DNA from: Candidatus Levyibacteriota bacterium
Lineage (GTDB): Bacteria; Patescibacteriota; Microgenomatia; Levybacterales; UBA12049
Direction of reading: 5' to 3'
Length of the DNA: 64,000 nucleotides
Assembly (NCBI GenBank): GCA_016182185.1
Contig: JACOXU010000001.1
Location: 274,915-338,914 of the forward strand
The position numbers and the translations under genes are program-made. Positions 17,286 to 58,619 of this stretch are shown here, piece after piece. How positions within the stretch are numbered: the stretch's first letter is position 1; every line of letters begins with the position of its first letter. The notes beneath the pieces are model-generated. The model did not search any database and had not been told where the DNA came from. It saw nothing but the letters and a program-made list of their open reading frames with translations.

Positions 17286-18349
17286 AATTCAAGAATATGC
17301 CTAAGATCAGAGCAAAATCTATCTCCTCCGAAAAAATTTGCCCTTTTTATTGCCTCTTTAGACATCTTACTCCACAAATCTTGATCTTCGGTTAATATTT
17401 TGGTCTTATCTATCAATTCTTCCAGCGTATTCCAGAGGAATCCATTTTTTTTATCCTCTACTATTTCTTTTTGACCACCAGCATTTATCACAACGGGAAC
17501 ATTTCCTGCGCCCATTGCCTCAACTGTCGATATACCGAAGTGCTCAGCGTATTCAGGATGCCTTAACAAATCTTCACCAAGCCCTGAAGCATGCCAATAA
17601 ATCTTGGCTTTTGAATATATATTCCAAAGATGATCGTTTGTATTATTGATTGAAAACTCAATCGGAAAATTTTCCGTTCGTTTTTTAAATTCATTAAAAA
17701 TTTTTTCTTCGTTCTTCTTAACACTTACTGCAAGCACAAATTTCCAATTAAGAAGCCCTCTCTTAATCATTTCTTTAAAAGCTTCAATCATTACACCTTG
17801 CTTTTTATAATCATCCGCATTTACGTTTCGCACCCTAAATCTTCCTACATGAAGAATAATATTTTCCTTGTTGTCTTTCGTAGGTCTTAGGCTAACAGGA
17901 GGATACAGAATCGAACTATCAATATTCAAAGATCTATCAATGTAAGATTTTGTATATTTTGAATTACAAAAAAATTTGGTTATTTTTTTAATTTTAAATT
18001 TATCTTTAAAATTTAATCGGAGTTCTGAAATTGGCTGCTGAAAATGAATAAATGTTTTTTTTGATAGAGTTATGGGAATACTCCCATCGCTGAGTAAAAT
18101 GATTACATCGTATTTCTTAGTTATAAGAAGTCTCCGAAAAGTACTTACTTTTGGTGAAAATATGTTTTTTGCAAAATTTATTCGTGATAAATTAAACGAA
18201 AATCTTCTTTTAAGCTCTTCTACATCATTATTATTGTCCCAGAATACATCCACGTTATGATTGGAGGCCAAACACTGGGCTACCGTCATCATGTACTTCT
18301 CTCCACCGCCTAAATCATCAAAGTATGGATCAAAAATTCCAATCTTCAT
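17282..18349 (-). CDS. GT4 (group 1) glycosyltransferase
   Basis: C-terminal EAMGAGNVPVVINAGGQKEIVEDKKNGFL, the EX7E-type GT-B motif. 355 aa. Confidence 0.65.
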   Translation of the reverse strand: MKIGIFDPYFDDLGGGEKYMMTVAQCLASNHNVDVFWDNNNDVEELKRRFSFNLSRINFAKNIFSPKVSTFRRLLITKKYDVIILLSDGSIPITLSKKTFIHFQQPISELRLNFKDKFKIKKITKFFCNSKYTKSYIDRSLNIDSSILYPPVSLRPTKDNKENIILHVGRFRVRNVNADDYKKQGVMIEAFKEMIKRGLLNWKFVLAVSVKKNEEKIFNEFKKRTENFPIEFSINNTNDHLWNIYSKAKIYWHASGLGEDLLRHPEYAEHFGISTVEAMGAGNVPVVINAGGQKEIVEDKKNGFLWNTLEELIDKTKILTEDQDLWSKMSKEAIKRANFFGGDRFCSDLRHILEL

Positions 18350-18412
18350 GAGTTAATTCTACCAACTTTTATACTCCTTGCAAAGTTATTTGAGCTATGA
18401 TATCGTCAGAAT

Positions 18413-18664
18413 ATGAATTATTTTGATTCGCTTAATCAGATTTCACCCCTTGCTCTCTTTGCAGTATTCCTCTGGTCACTCTTGTGGAAAGGCGTTGCCT
18501 TGTGGAGAGCTGTAAAAAATGATCAAAGAAATTGGTTTATTGCAATCCTTGTTATCAATTCAATTGGAATACTCGAAATTACTTACCTTTTTGGATTCGC
18601 GAAAAAAAAGATGAAATTAGAAGAACTTAAATTTTGGGAATTACTTCAAAAATCTTCTTCTTGA
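18413..18664 (+). CDS. Small 2-TM membrane protein of unknown function, plus-strand ORF embedded in the minus-strand cluster
   Basis: 83 aa with two hydrophobic helices. It is convergent with the 3' end of the YfhO-like gene at 18641-21004 and overlaps it by 24 nt. Confidence 0.35.
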   Translation: MNYFDSLNQISPLALFAVFLWSLLWKGVALWRAVKNDQRNWFIAILVINSIGILEITYLFGFAKKKMKLEELKFWELLQKSSS

Positions 18665-21004: not shown

Positions 21005-21006
21005 TT

Positions 21007-21795
21007 TTAATTTTTTTTTGGGTTAATTTTAACTTTATTCTGAAACTCCCAAAGTCTTGCATAGGTAATAAAAATGCTAAAAGCCTGATAAATACTCTCA
21101 ATGATCCCTGCGGTGCCTGCTTTCCATCCGCTTTGTTTTATATAAGAATCTAAAAAGGCAGAAAGCATCACTCTGGGAAAACGCCACCATGTCATTTTGG
21201 GATGATTGTTGCTAAATTTAAGACCCGCCTCAATTTCCGACCAGCTTAATGTTTTTGTAACCATTGATGATAGGTCATGATGAGTAAAGTGGAGAAGAAA
21301 ACCCTCTAATTCTTTTATATCTCCATCAAAGATTGGACTCTCATGAAGCTTACCTTTCCATGATTTCAATTTTTTCCTTAAAAATAATCTTTCCATTTTT
21401 TCTATATAGGGCCATTCATGATTTCCAAAGTAAAAATTCTTTCTCTTGAATCTATAGGAAACAATGCCATTTCTAAAATTATTCACTGCCAAACTTATTT
21501 CTTCCCTAAGTTTTTCCGATACTCTTTCATCTGCATCAACATACAAAATCCACTCAAAAGATGCTTTTTCAAGACCAAAATTTCTAAGATCAGAGAAACT
21601 ATCTGATTTTAAACTGAAAACCTTAGCTCCCATCTTATGAGCTATTTCACAGGTTTTATCCTGAGAATTGTTGTCAACAATAATAATCTCGTCGCAGAAA
21701 GAAATTGACTCTATGCAATCTTTAATCTTCTCTTCTTCATTTTTGGTAATTACAACAGCAGATATCTTACTCATATTGAAAACTTCCTTTTCCAA
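21007..21795 (-). CDS. GT2 family glycosyltransferase
   Basis: MSKISAVVITKNEEEKIKDCIESI...IIIVDNNSQDKT...VDADE. A paralog of 22689-23588. Confidence 0.65.
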   Translation of the reverse strand: MEKEVFNMSKISAVVITKNEEEKIKDCIESISFCDEIIIVDNNSQDKTCEIAHKMGAKVFSLKSDSFSDLRNFGLEKASFEWILYVDADERVSEKLREEISLAVNNFRNGIVSYRFKRKNFYFGNHEWPYIEKMERLFLRKKLKSWKGKLHESPIFDGDIKELEGFLLHFTHHDLSSMVTKTLSWSEIEAGLKFSNNHPKMTWWRFPRVMLSAFLDSYIKQSGWKAGTAGIIESIYQAFSIFITYARLWEFQNKVKINPKKN

Positions 21796-23593: not shown

Positions 23594-25045
23594 TTATGTT
23601 AAGTTTTCTTTTATTAGATTTATATCTGCTATCAATTCTTTCTTTGCAATTAAGAATATTAATCCAAAATATAGTATAGCACCCATCATGATCATTATCA
23701 GTAAAGTTACAATATTCCTTACTATCAATGGGCTAAGAAAATAAATAACAACACCCATTACCAATGTGCAGAATGCAGGATATTTAATTATTGTGAAGAT
23801 GTTGAAATCTATGTGTTTTTTTGCTAAATAAACAACTACTCCTAGTGAAAGAGCAATAAAAGCTGATGCTGCTGATACACCATTGAAACCAAAAATAACT
23901 ATAGCTATGGGGGTCAATATCCAGGTTGCAATAGTCCAAAAAACCATCAAATATAATGTAATTTTAATTTTTCCTATCGCGTTTAAAGCGTTTGTCAATG
24001 GCGTTGAGATTGATGACAAGACTGCGTTTAAAGAGAAAAGAGATAAGGATATTAATGCGGGTTCCCATTTTGTATATTTAGGAATAATCTTAACAAAATA
24101 AGGAAATAAAACTATAAGCCCCATGAGAGAAGGGAAAATTAAAAAGCTGGAAGCAAAAATTGATTTCTCTAGTGCCTTACTAAGAATATTTTTATCATGC
24201 TGAAGTCTTGAAAAAGACGGAAATGTTATACGTATTACGTTATCCATTATCAAGCGCAGTGGAGTAAATGCCCATTTTTGGGCAAAACCTATGTAGCCTA
24301 CCTGAGCAATGGGTAGAACTTTTCCAAGATATGCTATCAAAAGATCATCCTTAATAAGAGCCAGAAAACTATTCATCTGAAAAGGGACTCCAAATGATAA
24401 AAGTTTCGAGGCTGATTTTTTTGAAAATCCAAATCTTATTCTCCAGGGACTAATGATATAGATTGTTATAAGTCCCGATAGTCCCCTTGCCAAAACTGCC
24501 AAGGAAAAACTGGTCACCCCGAACCCATTTATAGCAAGCAGAACTACAATAACGTTAAAAAAAATGTTTTCTACTATTTGAGGGACAACTAATTTTTCAA
24601 AATTTAAGTTTCTTTCAAGAATAATCGAAGGAATTGTCTTAAGCGAAGAAAGAAAAAAAGAAACAATCAACGCCTGAAATAAAAACACTCCATCATTCCC
24701 CAGATTATAAAAAGACTTAATAAAATTAGAAGAAAGTAATGCAATCACGACAAGAGTTGCAACAAGAATTTGCTGGATTGTAAACGTTGTTGAGAGATCC
24801 TCATCCGTTATTGCTTCTTTCTTTTGAATTAATGCTGCGGCAAGTCCAATATCTGAAAAGTATGAAAGAAAGGCAATTGCGGCAGAAACTACAAAAAATA
24901 CACCAAAAACAGACGGGGAAAGAAAAATTGTAAGAAGAAAGTTTGCACCAAATCCCAAAATTTGTATTGCAAAAGTACGATAAACCAAGGCAAAAATTCC
25001 ACGAACTGATCTTTTTGTGATTAGAGCAAGATCAACTTCTTCCAT
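23594..25045 (-). CDS. Wzx-like polysaccharide/oligosaccharide flippase (MOP superfamily)
   Basis: 483 aa with about 12-14 TM segments and no soluble domains. It sits between GT2 genes, as flippases typically do in glycan clusters. Confidence 0.5.
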   Translation of the reverse strand: MEEVDLALITKRSVRGIFALVYRTFAIQILGFGANFLLTIFLSPSVFGVFFVVSAAIAFLSYFSDIGLAAALIQKKEAITDEDLSTTFTIQQILVATLVVIALLSSNFIKSFYNLGNDGVFLFQALIVSFFLSSLKTIPSIILERNLNFEKLVVPQIVENIFFNVIVVLLAINGFGVTSFSLAVLARGLSGLITIYIISPWRIRFGFSKKSASKLLSFGVPFQMNSFLALIKDDLLIAYLGKVLPIAQVGYIGFAQKWAFTPLRLIMDNVIRITFPSFSRLQHDKNILSKALEKSIFASSFLIFPSLMGLIVLFPYFVKIIPKYTKWEPALISLSLFSLNAVLSSISTPLTNALNAIGKIKITLYLMVFWTIATWILTPIAIVIFGFNGVSAASAFIALSLGVVVYLAKKHIDFNIFTIIKYPAFCTLVMGVVIYFLSPLIVRNIVTLLIMIMMGAILYFGLIFLIAKKELIADINLIKENLT

Positions 25046-38379: not shown

Positions 38380-39081
38380 GTGAGCAGAAGGTTGGAAGCC
38401 AGAGGGCAATCTGAAGACATCGTCCCAAAGGAAAGATGGGGGGTTTCTTTTTGCGTGGTTACAATTTCTGGAAAACCCGGTTCCGGAAACACTGCGCTTG
38501 GGCAAGGGCTTGGAGACAAATACGGAGTCGAAGTTAGCCATGTAGGAGAGGCGTATAGAAAAGGAATTGAAGAACATAATATTCCGGTTATAGACTACTC
38601 CAGAAGACCGGTAAAAACAGATGAGGAAATTGACGAGATGCAGGCTCAAGCTATTAGACGCGCGATAGAGATGACCGGTCATCCGATTATAAAAGAATCA
38701 AAACTCGCAGGAGTTATAGCCACAGAGGTTTTGGACAAAACCGATGCAGGACAAAAAGCCTTATCTCCTGTTGCCAGAATTTTAGTGGTGGCAGATGAAA
38801 ATGTGAGAGCAGAAAGGATTCAAAAAAGAGAAAGCGAAAAAAATCCAGGACTTGAGGTTACGCAGGAAGAGATTCAGGACAGAACAAAAAACCGTTGGAA
38901 AAGAGACCTTACAAGATACAGAATTATACATCCTCAACTGGCGGATATTGACCCTTGGGATCCGGAAAGCGCGGATAAATTTTATGATTTTGTAATTGAT
39001 ACGACCGATTTAACTCCTGAAGAGGCAGTTCAAAAAGTACATGAGTTTTTAGCAAGCCGCGGGATGGTTAACTTAACTTAA
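38380..39081 (+). CDS. Archaeal-type cytidylate kinase-like P-loop NMP kinase; true start may be the internal GTG near 38455
   Basis: Walker A VVTISGKPGSGNTALGQGLGDKYGVEV resembles archaeal Cmk (ITISGxPGSGKTT). The ORF is visibly higher in GC than its surroundings. Confidence 0.5.
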   Translation: MSRRLEARGQSEDIVPKERWGVSFCVVTISGKPGSGNTALGQGLGDKYGVEVSHVGEAYRKGIEEHNIPVIDYSRRPVKTDEEIDEMQAQAIRRAIEMTGHPIIKESKLAGVIATEVLDKTDAGQKALSPVARILVVADENVRAERIQKRESEKNPGLEVTQEEIQDRTKNRWKRDLTRYRIIHPQLADIDPWDPESADKFYDFVIDTTDLTPEEAVQKVHEFLASRGMVNLT

Positions 39082-39468
39082 AATCTTCCCCGCCCATTTT
39101 TACCAAAAGACGGATTTGTGCCTATCGAGATAAGATCATGCTCTATCTTTTCTCTCATGAAACGGGTGTGTTTATTACCACAAGAAAGTTTTTGCTCAAG
39201 CTCCCCTAAAACATCATAATCTAGTGTTTCTACTCCTCTGGTACCACATCCCGGCTTAAATTCACAATTATTCCCTCTGGCAACAAGTCTAAATGCAGTC
39301 CTGCCCGCATTGCCCGGACCAAAGTTTCTTCTCCATTCTTTAAAGTTATTGAATCCTCTTCCTTCAATCTTTGACATATTTAATCGAAAATTATATCCTA
39401 TAAACCAAAAATTATCAAGTTCAATTCCTTGTATTTTGAGGTCATTTTGAGTAAAATAAGAAGGCTGC

Positions 39469-39476
<8 letters not shown>
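39078..39476 (-). CDS. Hypothetical protein (Cys-containing, possible Zn-ribbon); doubtful
   Basis: 132-aa ORF in the GC-rich island. Its start codon overlaps tRNA-Glu by 8 nt on the opposite strand. It has no recognisable motifs apart from CEFKPGC...SCGNKH. Confidence 0.25.
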
Positions 39477-39544
<68 letters not shown>

Positions 39545-39583
39545 AACAATCCTCCTCTTAATATTATTTGAAATTGAAGGTGG

Positions 39584-41278
39584 TTGTGCTATCATAATTT
39601 TATGGTCCTGCCCAATGAACAAGTAAACGATCTTTTGACCAAAGTCGGCGTTGATCAAAAAACCCTCAATGACCTTATAATCTTCACCGACAATGCCAAG
39701 ATCTCGCTTCAGGAAGCGGCAATTGAAAAAAATGTAATTACAGATGAAAAGCTGGGAATGTTGATTGCCGCTTCCCTTAAAATGCCCTTTATTTCTCTGT
39801 CAAAAGTCAGTATCCCTGAACCTGTCTTTCGTATCATCCCTGAAAGAATTGCAAGAAAATATAAGGTCCTTGCATTCGGCCGTGATGGCACCGGAATAAA
39901 ACTTGCTATGGCCAATCCCAAAGAAACCCAGCTTCAGGAAATGGTTATAAAAAAAACCGGACAAAAAATTGTTCCCTATTATGCAACTGAAAGAGACATT
40001 GAAAATTCAATGCAGCTTTATAAAAAAAACCTTCAAGAGCTATTCGATGACCTACTCCAGACCGAAGTTCCCACCAAAACTACCTCAGATGATGCCCCGA
40101 TTGTAAAAATGATCGAAATTTTAGTAACTCGCGCTTATCAAGATAAGGCATCAGATATTCATATAGAACCCCAGGAGAAAAATATTATAATCAGATTTAG
40201 AATTGACGGCATTTTGCACGATGTCTTAAGCCTTGAAAAAAGACATCATGACAGGATTGTTACTAGGATAAAAATACTTTCCAAATTAAGAACCGATGAG
40301 CACCTGAGCCCTCAGGATGGAAAAATGAGAATGCAGGTGGATGACGAAAACTTAGATATTAGAACTTCGATTATTCCAATTGCAGACGGAGAAAAAGTAG
40401 TGTTAAGACTTCTTTCCTCCCACTTTAGACAGTTCTCTTTGCAAGATCTTGGAATGAGTGATACAGATCTTAAAAAAATTAATAATGCAATCAATAAATC
40501 ATATGGAATGATTCTTTCAACCGGTCCTACAGGGTCTGGAAAAACAACTTTGATCTATTCGATACTTAAAATTTTAAACACCAGACAAAAAAACATTACT
40601 ACTATCGAAGATCCGGTTGAATACCGAATAAAAGCCGTCAACCAAATCCAGGTAAATACCAAAACAAAACTGACATTTGCTAACGGATTAAGGTCTATTT
40701 TAAGACAGGATCCAGATATTATTTTTGTGGGGGAAATACGTGACAGCGAAACAGCGGGAATTGCTGTAAATGCCGCCCTTACAGGCCATCTGGTCCTTTC
40801 AACAATTCATACCACCAATGCTGCAACTGCACTTCCCAGGCTTATTGATATGGAGATTGAACCATTTTTGGTTGCTTCAACTGTTGATATTATTGTTGCA
40901 CAGAGACTCGTGAGACGAATCTGCGAATCTTGTAAGATAAAGGCTTTGGCGAAACGAAGCGACCTTCTTAAAAATTTTCCGGAAAAAAGCATTACTAAGT
41001 ATTTCGGTTCGCAGGACAACATCAAGGTGATGCAGGGACAAGGATGTAAGATGTGTCACTACACGGGCTTTTCAGGTCGAATAGGCATTTTTGAAGTAAT
41101 AGACGTCTCAAACACGGTTAGAAAACTTATAACACAAAAGAGTGATTCAGATGTGATAAATAAAGCGGCTATTGAAGAAGGTATGACAACTATGCTTGAG
41201 GACGGACTCGAAAAAGTAGCAAAAGGAGTAACAACAATAAGTGAAGTACTAAGGGTTACCAAAGTAGAATCTGCATGA
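39584..41278 (+). CDS. pilB: Type IV pilus assembly ATPase PilB (GspE family)
   Basis: N-terminal GSPII_E-like domain, Walker A GPTGSGKTT, the tetracysteine motif CESCK...CKMCHYTG, and Asp/His boxes. The start may be the ATG at 39603. Confidence 0.85.
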   Translation: MCYHNFMVLPNEQVNDLLTKVGVDQKTLNDLIIFTDNAKISLQEAAIEKNVITDEKLGMLIAASLKMPFISLSKVSIPEPVFRIIPERIARKYKVLAFGRDGTGIKLAMANPKETQLQEMVIKKTGQKIVPYYATERDIENSMQLYKKNLQELFDDLLQTEVPTKTTSDDAPIVKMIEILVTRAYQDKASDIHIEPQEKNIIIRFRIDGILHDVLSLEKRHHDRIVTRIKILSKLRTDEHLSPQDGKMRMQVDDENLDIRTSIIPIADGEKVVLRLLSSHFRQFSLQDLGMSDTDLKKINNAINKSYGMILSTGPTGSGKTTLIYSILKILNTRQKNITTIEDPVEYRIKAVNQIQVNTKTKLTFANGLRSILRQDPDIIFVGEIRDSETAGIAVNAALTGHLVLSTIHTTNAATALPRLIDMEIEPFLVASTVDIIVAQRLVRRICESCKIKALAKRSDLLKNFPEKSITKYFGSQDNIKVMQGQGCKMCHYTGFSGRIGIFEVIDVSNTVRKLITQKSDSDVINKAAIEEGMTTMLEDGLEKVAKGVTTISEVLRVTKVESA

Positions 41279-42321
41279 GTAGTCTAACGCTTTCCGGAAA
41301 TGATAAATTAGGCCTTATCAGTAACCTTGCTACGATGATCGCAGCAGGTATTCCCATACTTGAAACTATTGATTCATTACTCGAAGACGCAAAAGGAAAT
41401 ACAAAAAAAATCCTTGAAAAAGTTCGAGAGGACCTGACTCAAGGAAGATATTTGTATAGTTCATTTGCAAACTTTCCGAATGTTTTTGATAAGGTAAGTG
41501 TAAATATAATTAAGGCAGCTGAGGAGGCAGGAACTTTGGACGTAACTCTTAAAGACTTGAAGGAGCTTATCAAAAAAGAACTTGAGTTTGCCGATGAAAT
41601 AAAAGGCGCCCTTTCCTATCCTGTTTTGATTATTATTGTATTTGTAATAATTCTATTTCTTATACTCGTTGTAGTTATCCCTAAGATTTCTGTGGTATTT
41701 CTGCAGCTTGGAGTTTCTCTTCCTCTTCCGACAAAAGTTCTGATTTATTTGTCTAATCTGTTAACCAAAAATACACTCCCCGTCATGGGGATAATTATAC
41801 TTTTTCTCGCCGGGTTGTTTTTCATTTATAAATTTAAAAAGGAATGGTTTCATTCGATCCTATACTCATTGCCTATTGTCTCTGGACTTATTAACTATAT
41901 TGATCTTATACGCTTCTCAAGAAGTATGAATTTACTGCTTTCTTCAGGAATCACCATTACAACAGCACTTGAATTTGCAGAAGATGTTGTAGTAAAGAAA
42001 GATATGGTCAAAGCAATTCATGCAACTAGAAAATCTATACTTGTAGGAAAAGATCTTTCAGATGGATTCAAAGAAAATAAAAAAATTTTTCCAAGTATTA
42101 TGATAAAAATTATTGAAGCAGGCGAAAAAACAGGAACTCTTGAAACATCCATGCAGGACATTTCAGACTATCTTAATTATCAAATAACCAACAAGCTTAA
42201 AACTCTTACAACTCTTCTTGAACCAATAATGCTTATCGTTATTGGCGTGATGGTTGGAGGAATGATGTTGTCAATTTTCGGTCCGATGTATGGATTAATA
42301 ACCAACATTGGCGGCCGATAA
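41275..42321 (+). CDS. pilC: Type IV pilus platform protein PilC (GspF family)
   Basis: 348 aa with three TM segments and a T2SS-F-like cytoplasmic domain. It overlaps pilB by 4 nt. Confidence 0.7.
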   Translation: MSSLTLSGNDKLGLISNLATMIAAGIPILETIDSLLEDAKGNTKKILEKVREDLTQGRYLYSSFANFPNVFDKVSVNIIKAAEEAGTLDVTLKDLKELIKKELEFADEIKGALSYPVLIIIVFVIILFLILVVVIPKISVVFLQLGVSLPLPTKVLIYLSNLLTKNTLPVMGIIILFLAGLFFIYKFKKEWFHSILYSLPIVSGLINYIDLIRFSRSMNLLLSSGITITTALEFAEDVVVKKDMVKAIHATRKSILVGKDLSDGFKENKKIFPSIMIKIIEAGEKTGTLETSMQDISDYLNYQITNKLKTLTTLLEPIMLIVIGVMVGGMMLSIFGPMYGLITNIGGR

Positions 42322-42323
42322 CT

Positions 42324-42812
42324 ATGGTATCTTCAAAGCAAAAGGGATTTACCTTATTAGAAATTCTAATCAGTCTAACAATATTTGCTACTCTATTAGG
42401 CTTTGCTACGGTAAGCTTCTTAAACACTCGACAGACGAGTTCAATTAACAGTTCTTTAGAAAAGATAGTCTCAGACATAAAGAGCCAGCAGCTTAAAGCA
42501 ATGGCAGGCTCATCCGATGGGGGTGAAAGCGGTTCAAGTTACGGAATCTATTTTGCGGTAAGTAGCTACACTCTTTTTCGGGGAAGTTCATACAATCCTT
42601 CAGATTCAACAAATTTAACTATTGACTTAAATGAAAATATCAATATGACCAGCATTCTACTGCCTAGCAATTCGGTTGTCTTCTCCCAGCAAAGCGGAGA
42701 GATCTTAGGTTTTGACAGTAATAATAATTCCATAACTCTTAAAAATATTTCAGCAAATGAACAAAAAACCATTACCATCAATCGATATGGTGCAACTTCA
42801 TTATCGCCTTAA
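42324..42812 (+). CDS. Type IV pilin / pseudopilin (prepilin-type N-terminal cleavage/methylation domain)
   Basis: MVSSKQKG|FTLLEILISLTIFATLLG, a class III signal with F at +1 and E at +5. Confidence 0.8.
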   Translation: MVSSKQKGFTLLEILISLTIFATLLGFATVSFLNTRQTSSINSSLEKIVSDIKSQQLKAMAGSSDGGESGSSYGIYFAVSSYTLFRGSSYNPSDSTNLTIDLNENINMTSILLPSNSVVFSQQSGEILGFDSNNNSITLKNISANEQKTITINRYGATSLSP

Positions 42813-42816
42813 TTTA

Positions 42817-44745
42817 ATGAAAAATCGATTTTTTGAAAAGGGTCAATTTATAATAGAACTTCTTATAACCATAGGTCTTACTTCAATGATTCTTCCTGCC
42901 ATTCTCACGGGTTTTTTTGCTGTAAGATCAGGAAGCATCAATCAGGATCAAAAAATTCAAGCGATATCTTACCTTAAAGAGGCGGCAGAAGCTGTTCGAA
43001 TTGTACGTGATGCAGATTGGGCTCAAATTGCGACAAACGGAACCTTTCATCCAGTAGTGTCTGGTTCATCCTGGTCACTTGTATCCGGGAGTGAAACACT
43101 AAGTCCTTATAACCTTACTCGGCAAATTGTAATTAGTGATACCTATCGGGATTCAAACGGTGCTATAGTCACAAGTGGAGGAACCCAAGATCCCTCGACT
43201 AAGAAAATTACTATTACTGTTTCGTGGAATAATCCTCTTCTTTCATCCGTTGAATCTATAATGTATTTAACTCGTTATCATGAAAATGCTTCATTTATTC
43301 AATCATCGGAAACTGATTTTAATTCGGGAACTTTATCAAGCACTGTAGTAACAAATACAGATGGCGGGGAGATTACTTTGGGGGCTGGGGGAAGCGGGAG
43401 TTGGTGCAGTCCGAATTTATCAATAACTGCTCTTGATCTTCCCAAAAATGGAGTTGCAAATGCAGTATCGGCCATCGAGGGCGGTGCTTTTACGGGAACC
43501 GGAGAAAATGCATCCGGGGTTTCATTTGCAAATGTATCAATAAGTAATACCAATCCTCCAGTAGCAAGTATTTTAGGAACTTTTGACGGATACAAAACTA
43601 ATGGGGTTTTTGGCGAAACAAACTATGCATATCTTGCTACTGATACCGGATCAAAAGAAATCGTAATCATCGACCTGACTCAATTAACAAACGGGAAATA
43701 TGCAGAAGCCGGATATTTTAATGCTCCGGGAAACGGCAGGGGAGAAAGTATTTTTGTCTCAGACAATATAGGCTACATGAATGACGGAAATAAATTATAC
43801 ACATTTGATCTCTCAAGTAAGTCCGGTTCAAGACCACAGTTGGGAAACGTTACGCTCGCCGCAACCGGAAGCAAGGTTGTTGTTATGGGAAATTATGCGT
43901 ATGTTGCTATCGCCGGTGCCGCACAAGAGCTTCAAATTATCCAAGTCAGCAATGGAGGACGAACTTTATCTATAGTTGGATCGGCAGATGTAAACGGTCA
44001 GGCCGCATTTGATGTCTTTGTTAATTCAACTGCTACCCGAGCTTATCTTGCAACAGGAGCCTCCTCATCCCAAAGAGAATTATTCATTGTGGATATCTCA
44101 ACCAAGACTGGAAGTAGACCAAGTATAGGAAACTACGATTCGAATGGCATGAATCCAAGAGGAATTACTGTTGTTCCCGGCAACAAAGCAATTCTAGCTG
44201 GGAGCGGGGGTCAGGAGTATCAAGTTATAGATATAACCAATGAAGCAAATCCCGTAGAATGCGGAGGTCTTCAGATCGACACGGGAGTACGGGGAGTCTC
44301 AGGAGTCACCGAACAAGACGGTGATGCCTATGCATATATAGTTACTGGAGATGCGACCACAGAATTTAAGATAATTGAAGGCGGACCGGGCGGACAATAT
44401 TCAAGTTCTGGAACATTCACCTCAGCTGCCTTTGATGCAGGTTCAACTGTAACCTACAATCGATTTATTCCGACATTTTCACAACCCAGTCAGACAAACA
44501 TTCAGTTTCAAGTTGCAGTGGCCGATGCCGTAAACGGATCATGCACCGATTCAACCTATTATTTTGTCGGACCGGATGGAGCCTCCAACACTTATTTTTC
44601 CCAAGAAGGTCCAATTCCGCTTCTTACCAACGAGCAGGGTTACAAAAATCCAGGAAGATGCATAAAATATAAAGCGTATTTGTCAACTACTGATTTAAGC
44701 CAGGCGCCCATCCTATACGATGTAAGCTTTAACTATTCACCATGA
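42817..44745 (+). CDS. Large pilin-like protein with LVIVD-like beta-propeller repeats (candidate tip adhesin); ORF-track start 42757 is probably too early
   Basis: From the ATG at 42817, MKNRFFEKG|QFIIELLITIGL is a prepilin signal. The body carries repeated motifs AYLATDTGSKEIVIIDL, AYVAIAGAAQELQIIQV, AYLATGASSSQRELFIVDIS and AYIVTGDATTEFKIIEG, which are LVIVD-repeat-like. Confidence 0.6.
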   Translation: MKNRFFEKGQFIIELLITIGLTSMILPAILTGFFAVRSGSINQDQKIQAISYLKEAAEAVRIVRDADWAQIATNGTFHPVVSGSSWSLVSGSETLSPYNLTRQIVISDTYRDSNGAIVTSGGTQDPSTKKITITVSWNNPLLSSVESIMYLTRYHENASFIQSSETDFNSGTLSSTVVTNTDGGEITLGAGGSGSWCSPNLSITALDLPKNGVANAVSAIEGGAFTGTGENASGVSFANVSISNTNPPVASILGTFDGYKTNGVFGETNYAYLATDTGSKEIVIIDLTQLTNGKYAEAGYFNAPGNGRGESIFVSDNIGYMNDGNKLYTFDLSSKSGSRPQLGNVTLAATGSKVVVMGNYAYVAIAGAAQELQIIQVSNGGRTLSIVGSADVNGQAAFDVFVNSTATRAYLATGASSSQRELFIVDISTKTGSRPSIGNYDSNGMNPRGITVVPGNKAILAGSGGQEYQVIDITNEANPVECGGLQIDTGVRGVSGVTEQDGDAYAYIVTGDATTEFKIIEGGPGGQYSSSGTFTSAAFDAGSTVTYNRFIPTFSQPSQTNIQFQVAVADAVNGSCTDSTYYFVGPDGASNTYFSQEGPIPLLTNEQGYKNPGRCIKYKAYLSTTDLSQAPILYDVSFNYSP

Positions 44746-45239
44746 TAAAAAACAAAATAAAACAAAAGGGATCGTCATTTATAGAAATCATTTTATATAT
44801 GGCTATTTTTTCAATGCTTTTGGTAATTCTGCTTCAGATGTTTACTTCAATTATTGACATCCAGCTTGAATCCCAAACTAGATCAAGTGTGCTTCAGGAT
44901 GAAAGATTTATCCTTCAGAGATTAACTTTTGATATAAGGCGTGCCCAGAGCATAAATATTCCCGCAGCACCCGGAGAGCAAGGATCCACACTGCAGCTTG
45001 TTATTGATGGAATAAACTATACTTATAGTTTGGATGGAAATGATTTGACTCTTAATAATAATTTGGGTACTGATTCTATAAATAGTTCCGAAACAGCAGT
45101 TTCAAGCATCAATTTCACAAGACTCGGAGAAGCAAGCGGCAAAAACAGTCTTCAGGCCTTATTCACTCTGACGAGTAATGCAAAGAGAAGATCAGGGCCG
45201 GAGCAGGAAGTGTTCAGCGCAACGATTGGAACAAGATGA
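44742..45239 (+). CDS. Type IV pilin-like protein
   Basis: MIKNKIKQKG|SSFIEIILYMAIFSMLL with E at +5. Overlaps its neighbour by 4 nt. Confidence 0.65.
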   Translation: MIKNKIKQKGSSFIEIILYMAIFSMLLVILLQMFTSIIDIQLESQTRSSVLQDERFILQRLTFDIRRAQSINIPAAPGEQGSTLQLVIDGINYTYSLDGNDLTLNNNLGTDSINSSETAVSSINFTRLGEASGKNSLQALFTLTSNAKRRSGPEQEVFSATIGTR

Positions 45240-45619
45240 AAAAGAGAATTCAAGAACGCGGACAAGCATTGATAACATTTCTGTATATTATGATTATTGG
45301 CATGACCATCTCTTCGGCCTCGGCGGTAATTATGTTGATAAATTTAATGGGAGGGGGAACAATGGAAAGAGGGGAAATTACTTATTATATTGCAGAATCA
45401 GGAATTGAAAATGCAATTCTTAAGCTCTTACGCGATCCTGATTATTCGGGTGAAACTTTGAGTGTGGGTGGAGGAAACGTAACTACGGAAATAACGAGCC
45501 AAAACCCCCTAACAATTGTTGCCACCGGAAGATATAATAATATAGTACGCAAGATTGAAGTACAGACGTTGTATAATAATAATGTATTAACAATTTCATC
45601 ATGGAGGGAAATTAATTAA
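45236..45619 (+). CDS. Minor pilin-like protein (PilX/ComGF-like N-terminus without E at +5)
   Basis: MKKRIQERG|QALITFLYIMIIGMTISSASAVIML. Overlaps its neighbour by 4 nt. Confidence 0.5.
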   Translation: MKKRIQERGQALITFLYIMIIGMTISSASAVIMLINLMGGGTMERGEITYYIAESGIENAILKLLRDPDYSGETLSVGGGNVTTEITSQNPLTIVATGRYNNIVRKIEVQTLYNNNVLTISSWREIN

Positions 45620-46282
45620 ATGGATTTTTCCGCAAAACAATCAGGAATTTTTTATATTGAAAGGGTAAGAGCCTTCTATTATGACAACAGTCTTTCATCT
45701 CCTCTTAAAATAGAATTTCCCGAAGATGTATTTATCCATTCTGAAGTTATAGACAGAAAAAAATTTTATGTCTTGATTCATGATTTTCTTGTAAAAAACA
45801 AGATAAATTATCATAAGGTTATCTATATAATCCTTTCGCCTCAAATTACTTTCGAAAAAGATTTCGATAAGAAAACCGTTATTTCGGAAGCTGAATTTGC
45901 GGAATTACAAGATATGATTCCGTTTGAGGAAGTAATTAATAAAGAATATCGTCTAGGTAATAAGATAAAAATTGTAAACGCCAATAAACATTTGTGTAAT
46001 GTATTATTTGGTATTTTTGAAGAGGGTAAATTTCTGGTGGGGGGAATTACTCCCCTTTCTATTTTGAAAGAGTTAGTTTCAGGGCTTGACAAAAATCTTA
46101 ATTTAGATCTTCTTATCGGTAAAACTGAACTTTTAAGATCCTACAGTTTATTTGATGTAGAAGATCCAAGTGCTGCAAATCAATCCAGGAAAAAGAACGC
46201 TTTAAATATCCGCTATATAATTTTACTGGGAATTCTTGGCTCCTTAATAATTCTTCTGACCGCGCTTCTACTTCTTCGATAA
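45620..46282 (+). CDS. Pilus-operon-associated hypothetical protein with C-terminal TM anchor
   Basis: 220 aa, immediately following the pilin genes, with C-terminal TM IILLGILGSLIILLTALLLL. Confidence 0.4.
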   Translation: MDFSAKQSGIFYIERVRAFYYDNSLSSPLKIEFPEDVFIHSEVIDRKKFYVLIHDFLVKNKINYHKVIYIILSPQITFEKDFDKKTVISEAEFAELQDMIPFEEVINKEYRLGNKIKIVNANKHLCNVLFGIFEEGKFLVGGITPLSILKELVSGLDKNLNLDLLIGKTELLRSYSLFDVEDPSAANQSRKKNALNIRYIILLGILGSLIILLTALLLLR

Positions 46283-46311
46283 TAGCTGGTTAAGAGGGTC
46301 AAAATAGGATT

Positions 46312-51282: not shown

Positions 51283-52371
51283 TTGATTAATTGTAAATCA
51301 TGTAGTATATTGCGAGCATTGTTTATGGGCAATGCCTTAGAAGAAAGAGAAAGAAAAGAACAAAGAAGTTTTGGTGTAGTGCAAGTTGTAGTAGACGGAT
51401 CACCCTTGTTTAAACCCGATTACGCTGCAGATCTTTCTGATAGAAGTTTCATAAATTATCTTAAGAACTCAGAGTCGGTGTGGAAATACGGTTCGGCAGC
51501 TTGGATGGACAGAAAACCAGAAGATATAAAACTGCTTGAAAGAATTGCGAAAGACAAGAGATTTCCTGAATTCTTAGCAGGCGTTATTAGAAACGGAGAA
51601 GACTATTTTGCAACACAAGCTGCCTCAGATTTAGCCGATATGATTGCGGGCAGCAATCAAGCTCTTGAAATCATTCCCTCAGAAGATTTAAGGCTACCTG
51701 AAAAAACTCCTGAGGATCCTGAGAATAAAGATAATTCTTTAGACAAGATAACAAAATCTATCAGGAGATTGGGATTATTTTTAAGAAAAGGGATGATAAT
51801 TTGTAGAGGAAATGTCGGCGAGGTAGAGGCCCTGCGAGGAGGAACTCTGTATATTGACGGGGATGTAGAGAAATTATCTCAACCCGAATACGGAATAGTT
51901 TATATAAATGGCGATCTTCATCATCTTGGAAATTCAGATAAAATCATTTTGATTGTAACTGGAAAAATTCATGAGTATGTCCAGCCGAAATACTCAGCGG
52001 GTGGTCTTGGATTAGAAATAACCCCTTCTCCTTTTATTTTCACTTCTGAGGAAATTAGAGGACATCGGGTCGGAGTAAAAGATCATCACGGAGGAACTCA
52101 ATTGACACACGCTGAAGAATTTTCCGGAGGTTTGGTTGTCTCTCCTGATTCTATATCTGGATGGCAACCTCAAGATGTGAAAAGAAGAGCCATGGACCTT
52201 TGCAGGAAGCGGGTGGATACGGATCTTGAAAGCATTCGAAAAATCGCAGGAAACATAAGCGACCCAAAAAATATGGCGGAATTTTACGAGAAGTATATTT
52301 TGGGATACATAACAGCTCGAGTTAAAGGAAACTATGAAGGAGCGAGCCGTCACGCTATATCTTTTGACTAG
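51283..52371 (+). CDS. Hypothetical protein with a central beta-helix-like (bactofilin-reminiscent) repeat region
   Basis: 362 aa with higher GC than neighbours. The segment ICRGNVGEVEALRGGTLYIDGDVEKL...GIVYINGDLHHLGNSDKIILIVTGKIHEY has alternating G/V/I periodicity. The start is uncertain. Confidence 0.35.
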   Translation: MINCKSCSILRALFMGNALEERERKEQRSFGVVQVVVDGSPLFKPDYAADLSDRSFINYLKNSESVWKYGSAAWMDRKPEDIKLLERIAKDKRFPEFLAGVIRNGEDYFATQAASDLADMIAGSNQALEIIPSEDLRLPEKTPEDPENKDNSLDKITKSIRRLGLFLRKGMIICRGNVGEVEALRGGTLYIDGDVEKLSQPEYGIVYINGDLHHLGNSDKIILIVTGKIHEYVQPKYSAGGLGLEITPSPFIFTSEEIRGHRVGVKDHHGGTQLTHAEEFSGGLVVSPDSISGWQPQDVKRRAMDLCRKRVDTDLESIRKIAGNISDPKNMAEFYEKYILGYITARVKGNYEGASRHAISFD

Positions 52372-56122: not shown

Positions 56123-57425
56123 TTAAATTCTTGAAAAAAAATTCTTTTCCGTAAATTTGATTAAGCTCCAAAACGCCTATTCCGTGCTCTTTTCCCGTCA
56201 AGAGAAAATATATTTTTTTAAATGAGATGTTATTTCCCTTACTGAAATTTTTAAGAACCTTGAGAAGTTTCTCATCCTGCCAGGAATCCTTTAATTCATT
56301 TTTAAGATAAACCGATAAATTATTGGCAATTCTTTTTTCTTCCGAGGTCATTTTTCTTTCTCTTCTGATACTCATTAAATTTTTAAAATCTTTTAAAGTT
56401 TTTATTCTTGATCTTGCAGAATCAACTACCAGATCTCCTTTTGACGAATTAAGAAGAGATATTATATCTTTATCTTTGGAATAAAAATCAGTCAATCTTT
56501 GCTTGAGATCCTTAATCTCTCTAATCCACATTCCATTTAACCATTCAAGCTTTTTAAGATCAAAAATCGGATTTGCAGTATTAATATCTTTAAGATCAAA
56601 CAGTCGGATTAATTCCTTAATAGAGAATATTTCTTTATCTCGCCCACGCCTGTCTTCGCTTGCGCTCCGCAGGCGAGATCCGTCGCTTCGCTCGTCCGCT
56701 CCAGGATTCCAGCCAAGAAGCGCCATGTAGTTTAATAAAGTTTCTTTAAGATATCCTTCATCTTTATAATCCAGTACTGCTTTTGCACCGTGCCTCTTAG
56801 AAAGCTTTGTCTTATCAGTTCCTAAGATGATGGGCAAATGACACCAAACAGGTTCTTTCCATAGGAAAGCTTTATATAATTGAACATGTTTTGGTGTCGA
56901 GGAAATAAATTCCTCACCTCTAATTATATGGGTTATTTTCATAAGATAATCATCAACTACATTGGCAAAATTATAGGTTGGATATCCGTCAGACTTCATA
57001 ATTATGAAGTCTTCCTGTGTATTATTTTTAAACACAATTTTTTTATTTCCTACCGCGTCCTGCCAAAAAGTTTCGCCTGTCTTTGGCATCCTAAATCTTA
57101 GAGCGCCTTCTTCTCTATAAGCTAACTTTTTCTTTTCCAAAATATCTGCATATTCTTTGTAAACAGACAGTCTCTCGGATTGAACATATTTTTCATCAAA
57201 GGAAAGACCCAGCCATTCTAAGGTTTTAATTATTATAGTTTCTGCTTCTTTTAAAAATCTAGTTCTGTCTGTATCCTCAATTCGCAGAATAAATTTCCCG
57301 CTGTTATGACGTGCAAAAAGAAAATTAAAAAGCGCAGTTCTTGTATTTCCGATATGAGGGATGCCTGTCGGACTCGGCGCAAACCTTACTCTAATCATAG
57401 TTATTATTCCCGCGGGGTATTTCAA
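56115..57425 (-). CDS. gltX: Glutamyl-tRNA synthetase (class I), short form, with a GC-rich internal insertion
   Basis: HIGH motif (FAPSPTGIPHIGNTRTALFN) and KMSKS-type KLSKRHG. 436 aa. Insertion ADERSDGSRLRSASEDRRGRDK is encoded by a GC-rich patch at about 56640-56710. Confidence 0.85.
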   Translation of the reverse strand: MKYPAGIITMIRVRFAPSPTGIPHIGNTRTALFNFLFARHNSGKFILRIEDTDRTRFLKEAETIIIKTLEWLGLSFDEKYVQSERLSVYKEYADILEKKKLAYREEGALRFRMPKTGETFWQDAVGNKKIVFKNNTQEDFIIMKSDGYPTYNFANVVDDYLMKITHIIRGEEFISSTPKHVQLYKAFLWKEPVWCHLPIILGTDKTKLSKRHGAKAVLDYKDEGYLKETLLNYMALLGWNPGADERSDGSRLRSASEDRRGRDKEIFSIKELIRLFDLKDINTANPIFDLKKLEWLNGMWIREIKDLKQRLTDFYSKDKDIISLLNSSKGDLVVDSARSRIKTLKDFKNLMSIRRERKMTSEEKRIANNLSVYLKNELKDSWQDEKLLKVLKNFSKGNNISFKKIYFLLTGKEHGIGVLELNQIYGKEFFFKNLNE

Positions 57426-57575
57426 AATTTTGTAAAATCAAAGCGAGAAATAAATTTTTTCGCTGGACGCAAGCGAACTGCGTTTTCCTTGAAAAAATTT
57501 GATTTCGAGCAAATATTACAATTGACCTCAGCGGTACACTTGCATTGTACCTTAAGTTTTTCTTATACTCAAGAC

Positions 57576-58619
57576 ATGCTCACTTTGGGCCAAGCTTCAG
57601 CTATTACCAAAACTTTTGCCAAGTGGACAATAGGGATAATTGGCGCAATTCTGTTAATCCTAATTGCCTTCAGAGTCGGAAAAATAGTAAAAGAAATTAT
57701 TTCGCCTACTCCTCCTGCGCCGCCAACAGTTACATTCGGAAAACTACCCAAGATTGCATTTCCTGAAAAAAATATAGAAGGTCAATTCAGCTTCAGAATT
57801 GACACGCTAACCGGGGCTCTTCCTTCTTTTTCTGACCGGGCAAAAGTATTCAAGATGGTTCCTGACAGACCAGATCTTCTTGCAACTCAAAGAGCAAAAG
57901 ATAAAGTTACAAAGGTAGGATTTAAAGCTGATAGCATTCAAGTTTCAGAAAACATTTACGAGTGGACGGATGATACCCCTCTTGCCAGAAAATTGGTGTT
58001 AAACACTCTTACTTCCAATTTTACGCTTACATCTTCTTTTTTTACCGACCAGACAATTCTTGCCGCTACCAACCTTCCCGATCAAAATAAAGCCGTGTCA
58101 CTTGCTCAATCCTTTTTATCAAACATGTCGTCTCTCCCTGTTGATCTTGACGCTGAGAAAACAAAAGCTACTCTTTTCTCGATAAGAAACGGGACATTGG
58201 TTCCCTCAACAAGTTACTCAGAAACACAAATAGTCAGGGTCGATTTTTTTCAAAAAAATATAGAAAAAATGCCGATCTACTATTCAAATCCGGTAGTTCC
58301 AAATATAAGCTTTTTGGTCGGAGGCGGAGAAAATGATCCTCAAATTGTTCAAGCAAATTATACATATCAAGGAGTAACAGAGGAAAGTGCCACCTATCCG
58401 ATAAAAACTGCCCAAGAAGCCTACTCAGAGCTTGAGGAAGGAAATGCTTATACTGCCTCAAATAATAAGCCCGGGACCGTATCGATAACTAATATTTTTC
58501 TTGCATATTATATAGGAGAAGAAAGACAAGAGTATCTTTTGCCAATCGTTGTCTTTGAAGGAGAAAATAATTTTGTTGCTTATATTTCAGCCGTTAAGGA
58601 CGGATGGTTAAGTAATTAA
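57576..58619 (+). CDS. Hypothetical N-terminally membrane-anchored protein (ORF-track start 57306 overlaps gltX; ATG 57576 preferred)
   Basis: MLTLGQASAITKTFAKWTIGIIGAILLILIAF is a TM anchor, followed by a Pro-rich linker (SPTPPAPPTVTFGKLP) and a roughly 300-aa domain with no recognisable motifs. Confidence 0.4.
   Translation: MLTLGQASAITKTFAKWTIGIIGAILLILIAFRVGKIVKEIISPTPPAPPTVTFGKLPKIAFPEKNIEGQFSFRIDTLTGALPSFSDRAKVFKMVPDRPDLLATQRAKDKVTKVGFKADSIQVSENIYEWTDDTPLARKLVLNTLTSNFTLTSSFFTDQTILAATNLPDQNKAVSLAQSFLSNMSSLPVDLDAEKTKATLFSIRNGTLVPSTSYSETQIVRVDFFQKNIEKMPIYYSNPVVPNISFLVGGGENDPQIVQANYTYQGVTEESATYPIKTAQEAYSELEEGNAYTASNNKPGTVSITNIFLAYYIGEERQEYLLPIVVFEGENNFVAYISAVKDGWLSN

Follow-up and report, generated by a model that had tools for sequence, protein, structure and literature searches.

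Most lineages of the CPR (Patescibacteria) are uncultured, and how these bacteria find partners and attach to them is largely unknown, with type IV pili as the main candidates. In the 64,000-nucleotide stretch of Candidatus Levyibacteriota DNA analyzed here (the window), a pilB-pilC locus encodes, between smaller pilins, a 642-amino-acid protein (hereafter the big pilin) that a first-pass annotation, made from the letters of the DNA, had described as a pilin bearing LVIVD-like repeats. What would a pilus do with such a subunit? We have high confidence that the big pilin is a propeller-bearing minor pilin of this pilus system and moderate confidence that it serves in tip display and binding; taken as a whole, we consider this account probable. 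The features of the locus are collected in Table 1.

Table 1. Genes of the pilus cassette and modules of the big pilin, with window coordinates
Feature	Coordinates	Strand	Evidence or remark
PilB-type assembly ATPase, 564 aa, N-terminal MshEN domain	39584..41278	+	Pfam T2SSE 5.9e-127, MshEN 8.6e-15
PilC/GspF-type platform protein, 348 aa	41275..42321	+	Pfam T2SSF 1.9e-50, two stretches; 4 nt overlap with pilB
Pilin 1, 162 aa, canonical KG/FTLLE leader, probably minor pilin	42324..42812	+	Pfam N_methyl 1.4e-8
Big pilin, entire ORF, 642 aa	42817..44745	+	Identical to NCBI MBI2031303.1 (Candidatus Levybacteria hypothetical protein)
Big pilin leader peptide, residues 1-9 (MKNRFFEKG)	42817..42843	+	Predicted prepilin-peptidase cleavage after Gly9; conserved motif
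Big pilin pilin module, residues 10-155	42844..43281	+	AlphaFold2 model m7894af237df8, DSSP: helix 9-66 and antiparallel beta-sheet 75-152
Big pilin linker/neck, residues 156-215	43282..43461	+	Conserved GGE..LGAGG..WC.PNL..LDLPKNGVANA; invariant Cys197
Big pilin seven-bladed LVIVD-type beta-propeller, residues 216-525	43462..44391	+	Pfam LVIVD, AlphaFold2 strands, Foldseek, blade profiles
Big pilin C-terminal beta-sandwich, residues 526-642 and stop codon	44392..44745	+	Separate AlphaFold2 model mfb287338587b, pLDDT 91.2
Pilin 3, 165 aa, leader MIKNKIKQKG/SSFIE	44742..45239	+	N_methyl 7.6e-4, below cut-off; 4 nt overlap with big pilin gene
Pilin 4, 127 aa, leader MKKRIQERG/QALIT, without Glu+5, candidate capping subunit	45236..45619	+	Family leader conservation
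ORF7, 220 aa, cytoplasmic N-domain of ~190 aa and one C-terminal TM segment (193-220)	45620..46282	+	Last gene of conserved cassette

A longer reading frame for the big pilin, beginning at 42757, would run 56 nt into the upstream pilin gene. The start at 42817 agrees with the NCBI call (MBI2031303.1, 642 aa) and with a near-invariant Met1 in 120 homologues. The first-pass annotation had made its claim hinge on finding a prepilin peptidase cleavage motif once the start was settled, and from 42817, the motif is both present and conserved. The leader, MKNRFFEKG/QFIIELL (the slash marks the predicted cleavage site), is followed by ~20 hydrophobic residues (hydropathy window 9-37). Gly-1 and Glu+5 are each kept in 82 of 87 orthologues, which bears out the class III signal that the annotation had read here; Gln+1 is kept in 72 of 87, and Glu+5 is invariant in one alignment (A1). 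Using hhalign, the leader aligns in register with those of pilins 1 and 3 (probability 85-89%, E 3-7e-6). The Pfam N_methyl search proposed in the annotation came back empty, as neither PF07963 nor TIGR02532 matched the big pilin at E <= 1 in Pfam and NCBIfam scans. One homologue (P0112) carries a precomputed PF07963 match, and a profile of the N-terminal region matched solved pilins in the PDB over the first pilin helix alone, marginally (E 0.06). Residue +1 is Gln, not Phe or Met, which is unusual. Taken as a whole, the protein has the features of a type IV pilin: a basic leader with Gly-1, Glu+5, and, in the AlphaFold2 prediction, a lollipop of hydrophobic helix and sheet.

The surroundings of the gene are those of a pilus operon. 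The big pilin gene lies between pilin genes downstream of pilB-pilC, and its reading frames overlap or nearly abut those of its neighbors. PilB scores 510 bits against the NCBIfam type_IV_pilB profile over positions 12-563 of 564, below the equivalog cut-off. In the pilin 1 family, Gly-1 is found in 78/80 and Glu+5 in 79/80 members, and its profile matches type IV pilins of solved structure over their first helix (E 2.4e-7); a weak GspH match covers the N terminus only. The pilin 3 family keeps Glu+5 in 82/83 members (profile versus solved pilins, E 3.6e-4). Pilin 4 differs in that Gly-1 is universal in its family (80/80) and position +5 is T, M, V, or I, never Glu; the protein has weak Pfam matches to PilX_N (E 0.016) and ComGG (E 0.042), and its globular part has no match in a PDB profile search. 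Thus, of the four prepilin-signal proteins counted in the first-pass annotation, all have prepilin-type leaders (starting at 42324, 42817, 44742, and 45236), but the fourth is without Glu+5. GspK lacks Glu+5, as do PilX and ComGG, a parallel that the annotation had not drawn. By sequence, none of the four pilins could be assigned to the GspH, I, J, or K class.

ORF7 follows, with the C-terminal TM segment that had been described for it. Its N-domain has no Pfam, NCBIfam, or PDB match, and the sole Pfam finding in the family is an extracellular LytR_C domain added in 7 of the 25 members scanned, the longer homologues. From its topology, we would guess that the cytoplasmic domain is PilM- or GspL-like. 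ORF7 is also a conserved member of the cassette and not an incidental neighbor, which had gone unremarked. The annotation was right that other pilus components are missing from the window: Pfam scans of every ORF of at least 110 aa found no PilD (Peptidase_A24), PilT, or PilM/N/O/Q. Promoter-like sites (27 versus 22 +/- 5.1 in shuffled sequences) and terminator-like sites (8 versus 5.2 +/- 2.3) were within ~1 SD of expectation. A large glycosylation island that would modify envelope components lies near the cassette, and we claim no link between it and the big pilin.

What does the big pilin carry beyond its pilin module? The AlphaFold2 model (pLDDT 88.9, pTM 0.73) has four parts: pilin helix and sheet (1-155), linker, seven-bladed propeller (216-525), and beta-sandwich (526-642). 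The propeller is built of 28 strands in seven groups of four, with blades at residues 213-258, 259-302, 308-347, 348-391, 395-441, 444-486, and 489-524. A motif resembling xAYxAx...ExxIID occurs in six of the seven, blade 1 being divergent, and profiles made from single blades find the other blades in register (i-E 1e-3 to 1e-6). The Pfam LVIVD model (PF08309) matches with E 1.6e-8 and 34.2 bits, above its cut-off of 20.2, in a single stretch (353-379); just this one unit exceeds the Pfam domain threshold, the others being divergent. Many homologues have precomputed PF08309 matches. We take IPR013211 to be the LVIVD repeat entry. In Foldseek searches, the big pilin matched seven-bladed WD40/G-beta propellers (TM(target) 0.65-0.76, E 1e-8, ~340-350 alignment columns). 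The first-pass annotation had proposed LVIVD-like repeats and named a non-propeller fold as the outcome that would speak against them; the HMM score, the seven mutually detectable units, and the predicted seven-bladed propeller all uphold its proposal. The NCBIfam choice-of-anchor B model (TIGR04312) scored 21.4 bits, far below its cut-off of 100, and a Foldseek search of viral structures returned generic propeller proteins only, of the phage P22 gp10 type, which was uninformative. The module is swappable: in ~1020-aa variants, a second, tandem copy of the complete propeller is inserted between residue 524 and the sandwich.

The separate C-terminal sandwich was not part of the first-pass annotation. 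It contains invariant Cys576 and Cys615; Foldseek gave weak jelly-roll or CBM-like matches only (E >= 0.01), with no significant structural neighbor, and a sequence-profile search of the PDB gave no match. The head formed by propeller and sandwich is acidic, each module having a pI of ~4.4, and the mature protein contains 54 D+E versus 33 K+R. N-glycosylation sequons are not enriched (10 observed versus 8.2 +/- 2.6 in shuffles), and no ligand-binding site was identified in the big pilin. DNA-receptor and enzyme readings of the protein were ranked low, given the acidic head and the lack of a match to any catalytic family.

Is this arrangement peculiar to one genome? The family comprises 349 clusters at 50% identity (E <= 1e-30), and 123 or more species genomes encode a relative. 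Gene order was read in the 80 loci that were retained, and the arrangement PilB-PilC-pilin-big pilin-pilin-pilin (no Glu+5)-ORF7 is conserved across Microgenomates; 56 loci are complete and ~25 are truncated by contig ends, and they come from Levy-, Gottesman-, Roizman-, and Amesbacteria. The big pilin gene is always among the pilins behind pilB-pilC. ORF7 follows pilin 4 in 71/84 loci, including cassettes cut upstream by a contig end. After ORF7, ~58 of 84 related loci encode a further, canonical pilin (GFTLIE; 140-150 residues when mature; conserved sequence GFTLIELLVVIGILA...ISVTR), which is probably the major pilin. Since relatives add this pilin, the four pilins of the cassette are best read as a minor set. 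The window is without the canonical pilin; as conservation between genomes does not extend into the regions flanking the cassette, its absence is not traceable to a simple deletion. A regex search of the 84 related loci for the prepilin-peptidase GxGDxK motif, a heuristic only, found none. Median identity is 54% for the big pilin, equal to that of PilC, and 39-40% for the other pilins. Within the big pilin, conservation peaks in the propeller (59% identity), above all in blades 1, 2, 6, and 7.

Our best reading of these data is that the big pilin belongs to a four-pilin complex at the pilus tip and displays a ligand-binding head. A prepilin peptidase encoded outside the window would cleave it after Gly9, and the PilB/PilC machine of the same operon would then load it together with pilins 1, 3, and 4 as a complex that starts pilus assembly. 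Pilin 4 may sit on top of this complex, as GspK does in type II secretion. Polymerization of the major pilin beneath, from a gene that must lie elsewhere in this genome although it adjoins the cassette in most relatives, would leave the four-pilin complex at the tip. The acidic head would thereby be held away from the cell, where it could bind a ligand on some surface, probably that of a partner cell or of a substrate. Since the window is without a prepilin peptidase, major pilin, or retraction ATPase, processing and assembly of the big pilin are assumed here. The tip location is argued only from bulk and analogy, and we infer an adhesive function from the architecture of the protein and its analogues. 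Given that the head matches the platform protein in conservation, the ligand or partner of the head is probably conserved as well and not host-specific.

It is this conservation that gives the strongest alternative its force. An identity of 54% is unusual for a host-specific adhesin, and a structural or priming role would fit equally well. The propeller might act as PilY1 does, mainly as a conserved carrier that docks on the minor pilins to initiate assembly and perhaps to prevent retraction; it would then not bind the ligand itself, and any adhesion would be supplied by the sandwich or by other pilins. The propeller is indeed the most conserved module of a protein as conserved as PilC, in PilY1 and PilC it is the C-terminal propeller that serves as conserved carrier (PMC8179133), and none of the 84 loci encodes a second T2SSE-family ATPase (PilT) within 10 kb. 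However, the pilin module already attaches the big pilin to the filament, so that a propeller carrier is not needed. Moreover, the big pilin has no Pfam match to the PilY1/PilC propeller family (IPR008707), PilY1 is absent from the top 50 Foldseek matches, and TM7x forms pili without its propeller pilin, PilX2, while host binding falls (PMC11623550). We regard a PilY1-like role as unlikely.

Another possibility, which we judge improbable, is that the cassette builds a Com-like uptake pilus whose head captures DNA or another nutrient for a cell unable to make its own nucleotides. One ATPase, one platform protein, and four minor pilins plus one major pilin, without PilMNO or PilT, parallel the ComGA-GG set from which monoderm bacteria build their minimal ComG pilus. 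The pilins have weak matches in NCBIfam and Pfam to ComGD/GE/GF/GG, as do PilB to ComGA and PilC to ComGB, all of them below cut-offs. The prepilin peptidase would be encoded elsewhere, as with ComC, the Com-system peptidase, whose gene lies away from the pilin genes. ComZ of Thermus, a large minor pilin that serves as a DNA receptor, offers a precedent (cited in PMC8179133). Yet a head with a pI of ~4.4 is ill suited to binding DNA, PilB is of the full-length PilB/GspE type with MshEN and not the short ComGA type, the window contains no comEA or comEC, and the propeller-pilin system of TM7x does not affect competence (PMC11623550).

Least probable of all is that the big pilin is not a filament subunit and is instead a helix-anchored surface protein or part of a short pseudopilus whose propeller acts at the cell surface, e.g., as an enzyme or receptor: LVIVD repeats are found in many non-pilin surface proteins (Pfam family description), the N_methyl match is lacking, Gln+1 is unusual, and a large envelope-modifying glycosylation island is nearby, but the Gly-1 and Glu+5 kept in 82/87 orthologues would serve no purpose in a simple membrane anchor, and the gene always lies among pilins behind pilB-pilC, with a canonical major pilin following in most relatives.

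Going beyond the tip-pilin reading, one could speculate that the cassette represents a type IV filament subclass of its own, found throughout Microgenomates, in which an obligatory pilin-fused LVIVD propeller, as conserved as the platform protein, replaces a separate PilY1, ORF7, with its occasional wall-binding LytR_C domain, replaces the PilM/N/O alignment complex, and the head recognizes a universal envelope component (such as peptidoglycan or a common glycan) and not a host-specific receptor. We consider this unlikely.

As a large, strictly syntenic, and confidently modeled family, the big pilins are a candidate for the outward-contacting part of the pilus in Microgenomates, and the high conservation of the head makes it a practical target for antibodies, binding screens, and ligand searches. 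Current concepts are unchanged, as modular and propeller-bearing pilins have already been described (2021 catalogue; Saccharibacteria 2024). The novelty is modest, since pilins with IPR013211 repeats were catalogued in 2021 and a propeller pilin that promotes host binding was described in Saccharibacteria in 2024.

How does the big pilin compare with known systems? Modular pilins include PilB (vWA module) and PilC (lectin module) of Streptococcus sanguinis. Dataset S1 of the survey of modular pilins by Raynaud et al. (2021; PMC8179133) contains IPR012902+IPR013211 architectures in which the repeats number 1, 2, 5, and as many as 12, and CPR bacteria account for many of these. By its AlphaFold2 domain order, in which the pilin module precedes a distinct C-terminal module that is not specific to pilus biology, the big pilin is modular as Raynaud et al. 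(2021) define it. Like the S. sanguinis proteins, it begins with a small pilin module bearing a class III signal, continues through a linker into a bulky C-terminal module, and is encoded among minor pilins; unlike them, it carries a complete seven-bladed propeller and a further beta-sandwich. Since the Pfam N_methyl model misses the big pilin, a census built on InterPro would probably have passed it over. It also resembles LVIVD-repeat surface proteins (PF08309) in its above-cut-off HMM match, tandem units of ~45 residues, and predicted propeller on an extracellular protein.

The PilY1/PilC proteins of Pseudomonas, Neisseria, and Myxococcus are propeller proteins that prime the pilus with four minor pilins and reside at its tip (PMC8179133, PMC11623550). 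PilY1 itself is no pilin, and its docking is non-covalent; the propeller of the big pilin, in contrast, is part of a pilin with a class III motif. The four consecutive minor-pilin genes, the last without Glu+5 and the first with a weak GspH-like match, recall GspH-I-J-K, FimU-PilV-W-X, and ComGD-GG, although the bulky member is the second gene and not the Glu5-less one.

A natural comparison is with the RCC1-propeller pilin that promotes host binding in Saccharibacteria. Deletion of PilX2 in Nanosynbacter lyticus TM7x roughly halves host binding, and the protein is a proposed tip adhesin (PMC11623550). Both are large minor pilins of CPR bacteria, each with a C-terminal seven-bladed propeller and encoded with other minor pilins. 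As described, PilX2 differs in having RCC1 repeats, for which the big pilin has no Pfam match at E <= 1, and no predicted prepilin-peptidase signal, whereas the big pilin has LVIVD repeats, Gly-1/Glu+5, and an extra C-terminal domain. Finally, saccharibacterial pilins are reported to be poorly conserved (PMC11623550), in contrast to the highly conserved big pilin family.

The 642-aa protein of the pilus operon, here called the big pilin, matches MBI2031303.1 ("hypothetical protein HYT08_01680") from a Candidatus Levybacteria MAG at 100% identity; Levybacteria lie within the Microgenomates branch of the CPR (Candidate Phyla Radiation). The start used in the first-pass annotation, 42817, is correct, being also that of NCBI, and Met1 is near-invariant in 120 homologues. 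An alternative start at 42757, which would overlap pilin 1, was rejected. The class III leader read from this start, MKNRFFEKG/QFIIE (slash, predicted cleavage), likewise holds, with Gly at −1, Glu at +5 and a hydrophobic stretch next; among orthologues from 84 related loci, Gly-1 and Glu+5 each occur in 82 of 87 and Gln+1 in 72 of 87. The Pfam N_methyl model did not match the big pilin. In profile-profile comparisons, the leaders of pilins 1 and 3 line up in register with its N terminus (probability 85–89%), and for both of these pilin families the matches to solved type IV pilins are significant (E = 2.4e-7 and 3.6e-4).

Repeats resembling LVIVD units, and a propeller built from them, had been proposed from the sequence; the repeats were recovered, and the propeller is predicted. 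Since the Pfam LVIVD model scores 34.2 bits (threshold 20.2) and single-blade profiles from the family alignment detect other blades in register (i-E 1e-3 to 1e-6), the repeat is real, not a product of chance. We take IPR013211 to be the LVIVD repeat entry. The AlphaFold2 model, built on an alignment of the 120 homologues (pLDDT 88.9, pTM 0.73), predicts a beta-propeller of seven four-stranded groups, and Foldseek matched it in the PDB to the seven-bladed propellers of G-beta, WDR12 and the DDB1 BPB domain over ~340–350 alignment columns (TM(target) 0.65–0.76, identity ~10%). This predicted likeness is at the level of fold, not family. Modelled by itself, the C-terminal domain reached pLDDT 91.2; its structural neighbors were weak and jelly-roll or carbohydrate-binding-module-like (E >= 0.01, TM <= 0.5), and it had no PDB sequence match. 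Four cysteines are invariant (197, 482, 576 and 615), making two disulfides among them plausible. The head (propeller plus sandwich) is acidic, with a pI of ~4.4, which argues against DNA as its ligand.

Genes of the pilus operon, with median identity of each window protein to its orthologues, and segments of the big-pilin AlphaFold2 model
Feature	Position	Strand	Pfam	Median identity
pilB	39584-41278	+	T2SSE and MshEN	61%
pilC	41275-42321	+	T2SSF	54%
pilin 1	42324-42812	+		39%
big pilin	42817-44745	+		54%
helix	residues 9-66			
antiparallel sheet	residues 75-152			
neck	residues 156-215			
seven groups of four strands (28 strands)	residues 216-525			
beta-sandwich	residues 531-641			
pilin 3	44742-45239	+		39%
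pilin 4	45236-45619	+		40%
ORF7	45620-46282	+		26%

The operon consists of seven genes arranged head to tail directly downstream of a tRNA-Glu gene (39469-39544), in an AT-rich window (GC 0.29–0.40). Because the junctions are either 4-nt overlaps or gaps of 0–4 nt, their spacing indicates a single transcription unit; lon, on the opposite strand, starts 30 nt past ORF7. The listed TTG start of pilB lies within a promoter-like site with an extended −10 element (39568-39602), and the true start may be an ATG 18 nt downstream. A 132-aa ORF (39078-39476, − strand) that overlaps the tRNA matches no family and is unlikely to be a gene. Upstream, ~27 consecutive genes (1316-38283, − strand) form a very large glycosylation island, which encodes 15 or more paralogous glycosyltransferases of the multi-pass membrane kind (PMT_2, YfhO, PTPS_related and GT87 types) along with seven GT2 enzymes, one GT1/GT4 and a Polysacc_synt flippase (23594-25045); its GC content is 0.29–0.34, versus 0.35–0.40 in the remaining window. 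Three sizeable ORFs lack a Pfam family (51283-52371, +; 8037-9740, −; 57306-58619, +), the last overlapping by ~120 nt the 5′ end of an opposite-strand Glu/Gln-tRNA synthetase-family gene (tRNA-synt_1c).

A phmmer search of 1.84 billion representative proteins with the big pilin gave 2958 matches at E <= 1e-3 and 349 at E <= 1e-30, mostly full length (~640 aa). When one genome per species was scanned, relatives turned up in at least 123 genomes. Of their loci 80 were kept, from Levy-, Gottesman-, Roizman- and Amesbacteria as well as unclassified Microgenomates or Patescibacteria; some third-party assemblies bear what seem to be placeholder names ("uncultured Gammaproteobacteria", for example). 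The operon's order, PilB-PilC-pilin 1-big pilin-pilin 3-pilin 4-ORF7, is complete in 56 of 84 loci, and contig ends interrupt most of the others. Conservation inside the big pilin peaks in the propeller (59%), where blades 1, 2, 6 and 7 stand above blades 3–5 and blade 4 varies most. Whereas saccharibacterial pilins are reported to be poorly conserved (PMC11623550), the big pilin is conserved to a degree unusual for an exposed adhesin, which suggests either that the ligand is conserved or that the protein has a structural part in priming.

Variants of ~1020 aa (P0009, P0011, P0016, P0023 and others; L001:10001-13048) carry an insert of ~359 residues exactly after residue 524, before the C-terminal sandwich. 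As this insert is a tandem copy of the entire seven-blade propeller, blade for blade and including the preceding W-C-x-P motif, the propeller behaves as a movable module. The loci of these variants have an additional 306-aa gene after the big pilin. One Roizmanbacteria locus (L074, ~10001-13000) encodes two full-length paralogues in tandem (648 and 657 aa), and in L001 a 1262-aa protein with RCC1 (propeller) repeats and a Peptidase_M23 domain (17876-21664) lies directly downstream of three extra pilin genes.

What might the other pilins do? Pilins 1 and 3 have canonical leaders of the G/FTxxE type. Pilin 4 of the related loci always has Gly-1 and never Glu+5, with T, M, V or I at +5. The window's pilin 4 weakly matches Pfam PilX_N and ComGG. 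A missing Glu+5 is a hallmark of GspK, which caps the type II secretion minor-pilin complex, and also of PilX and ComGG. In ~58 of 84 related loci (L003, L007, L047, L059 and others), an eighth gene within ~100 nt after ORF7 encodes a strongly conserved canonical pilin (GFTLIELLVVIGILA...ISVTR; 140–150 mature residues), which we take to be the major pilin. The window has no such gene after ORF7 (46283-46311), where lon follows directly, and when nine of these pilins were run against the window by tblastn, matches were confined to pilin 1's first helix. Given this absence, the four window pilins are best read as the minor set, of the priming or tip kind, with another part of the genome coding for the fibre subunit. 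As first noted, PilM/N/O/Q, PilT and a prepilin peptidase (Peptidase_A24) were not found among window ORFs of at least 110 aa; no related locus has a second T2SSE-family ATPase within 10 kb. A secretin is not expected if CPR bacteria lack an outer membrane, as is generally assumed.

ORF7, already recognized as a 220-aa protein with a C-terminal membrane segment, has a cytoplasmic domain of ~190 aa and ends right after its single TM segment. It belongs to a family of conserved bitopic membrane proteins, in which longer homologues (330–397 aa; e.g., L018:12802-13956 and L079:12788-13969) add an extracellular LytR_C domain after this segment (7 of 25 members scanned). Nothing else matched in Pfam, NCBIfam or PDB. 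In topology it resembles GspL or a PilM-PilN fusion, a likeness offered purely as a guess.

The mechanism we envision builds on the pilin-type signal and fold, the head with its propeller and sandwich, operon membership, synteny and the Glu5-less fourth pilin. A peptidase encoded elsewhere would cleave the big-pilin leader, and the four minor pilins would co-assemble on PilC as an initiation complex with pilin 4 uppermost. As the major pilin extends the fibre, this complex would become its tip, displaying the big-pilin head so that it can bind. In experimental terms, the nearest precedent is TM7x PilX2, a minor pilin with an RCC1-type seven-bladed propeller; its deletion cut host binding by roughly half but did not stop pili from being made (PMC11623550). 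As in Streptococcus sanguinis modular pilins (PMC8179133), a functional module is grafted onto a pilin. A 2021 survey of modular pilins lists IPR012902+IPR013211 architectures with one to twelve copies, many from CPR, and describes the IPR013211 motif's function as unknown (PMC8179133). Since our literature search found no paper on the Microgenomates family and the survey lists such pilins, the family is well defined and new, within an already known kind of protein. Particular to it are a canonical signal motif that is conserved and carries Gln at +1, the added predicted beta-sandwich, the duplication of the whole propeller in some lineages and a conservation equal to that of the core machine.
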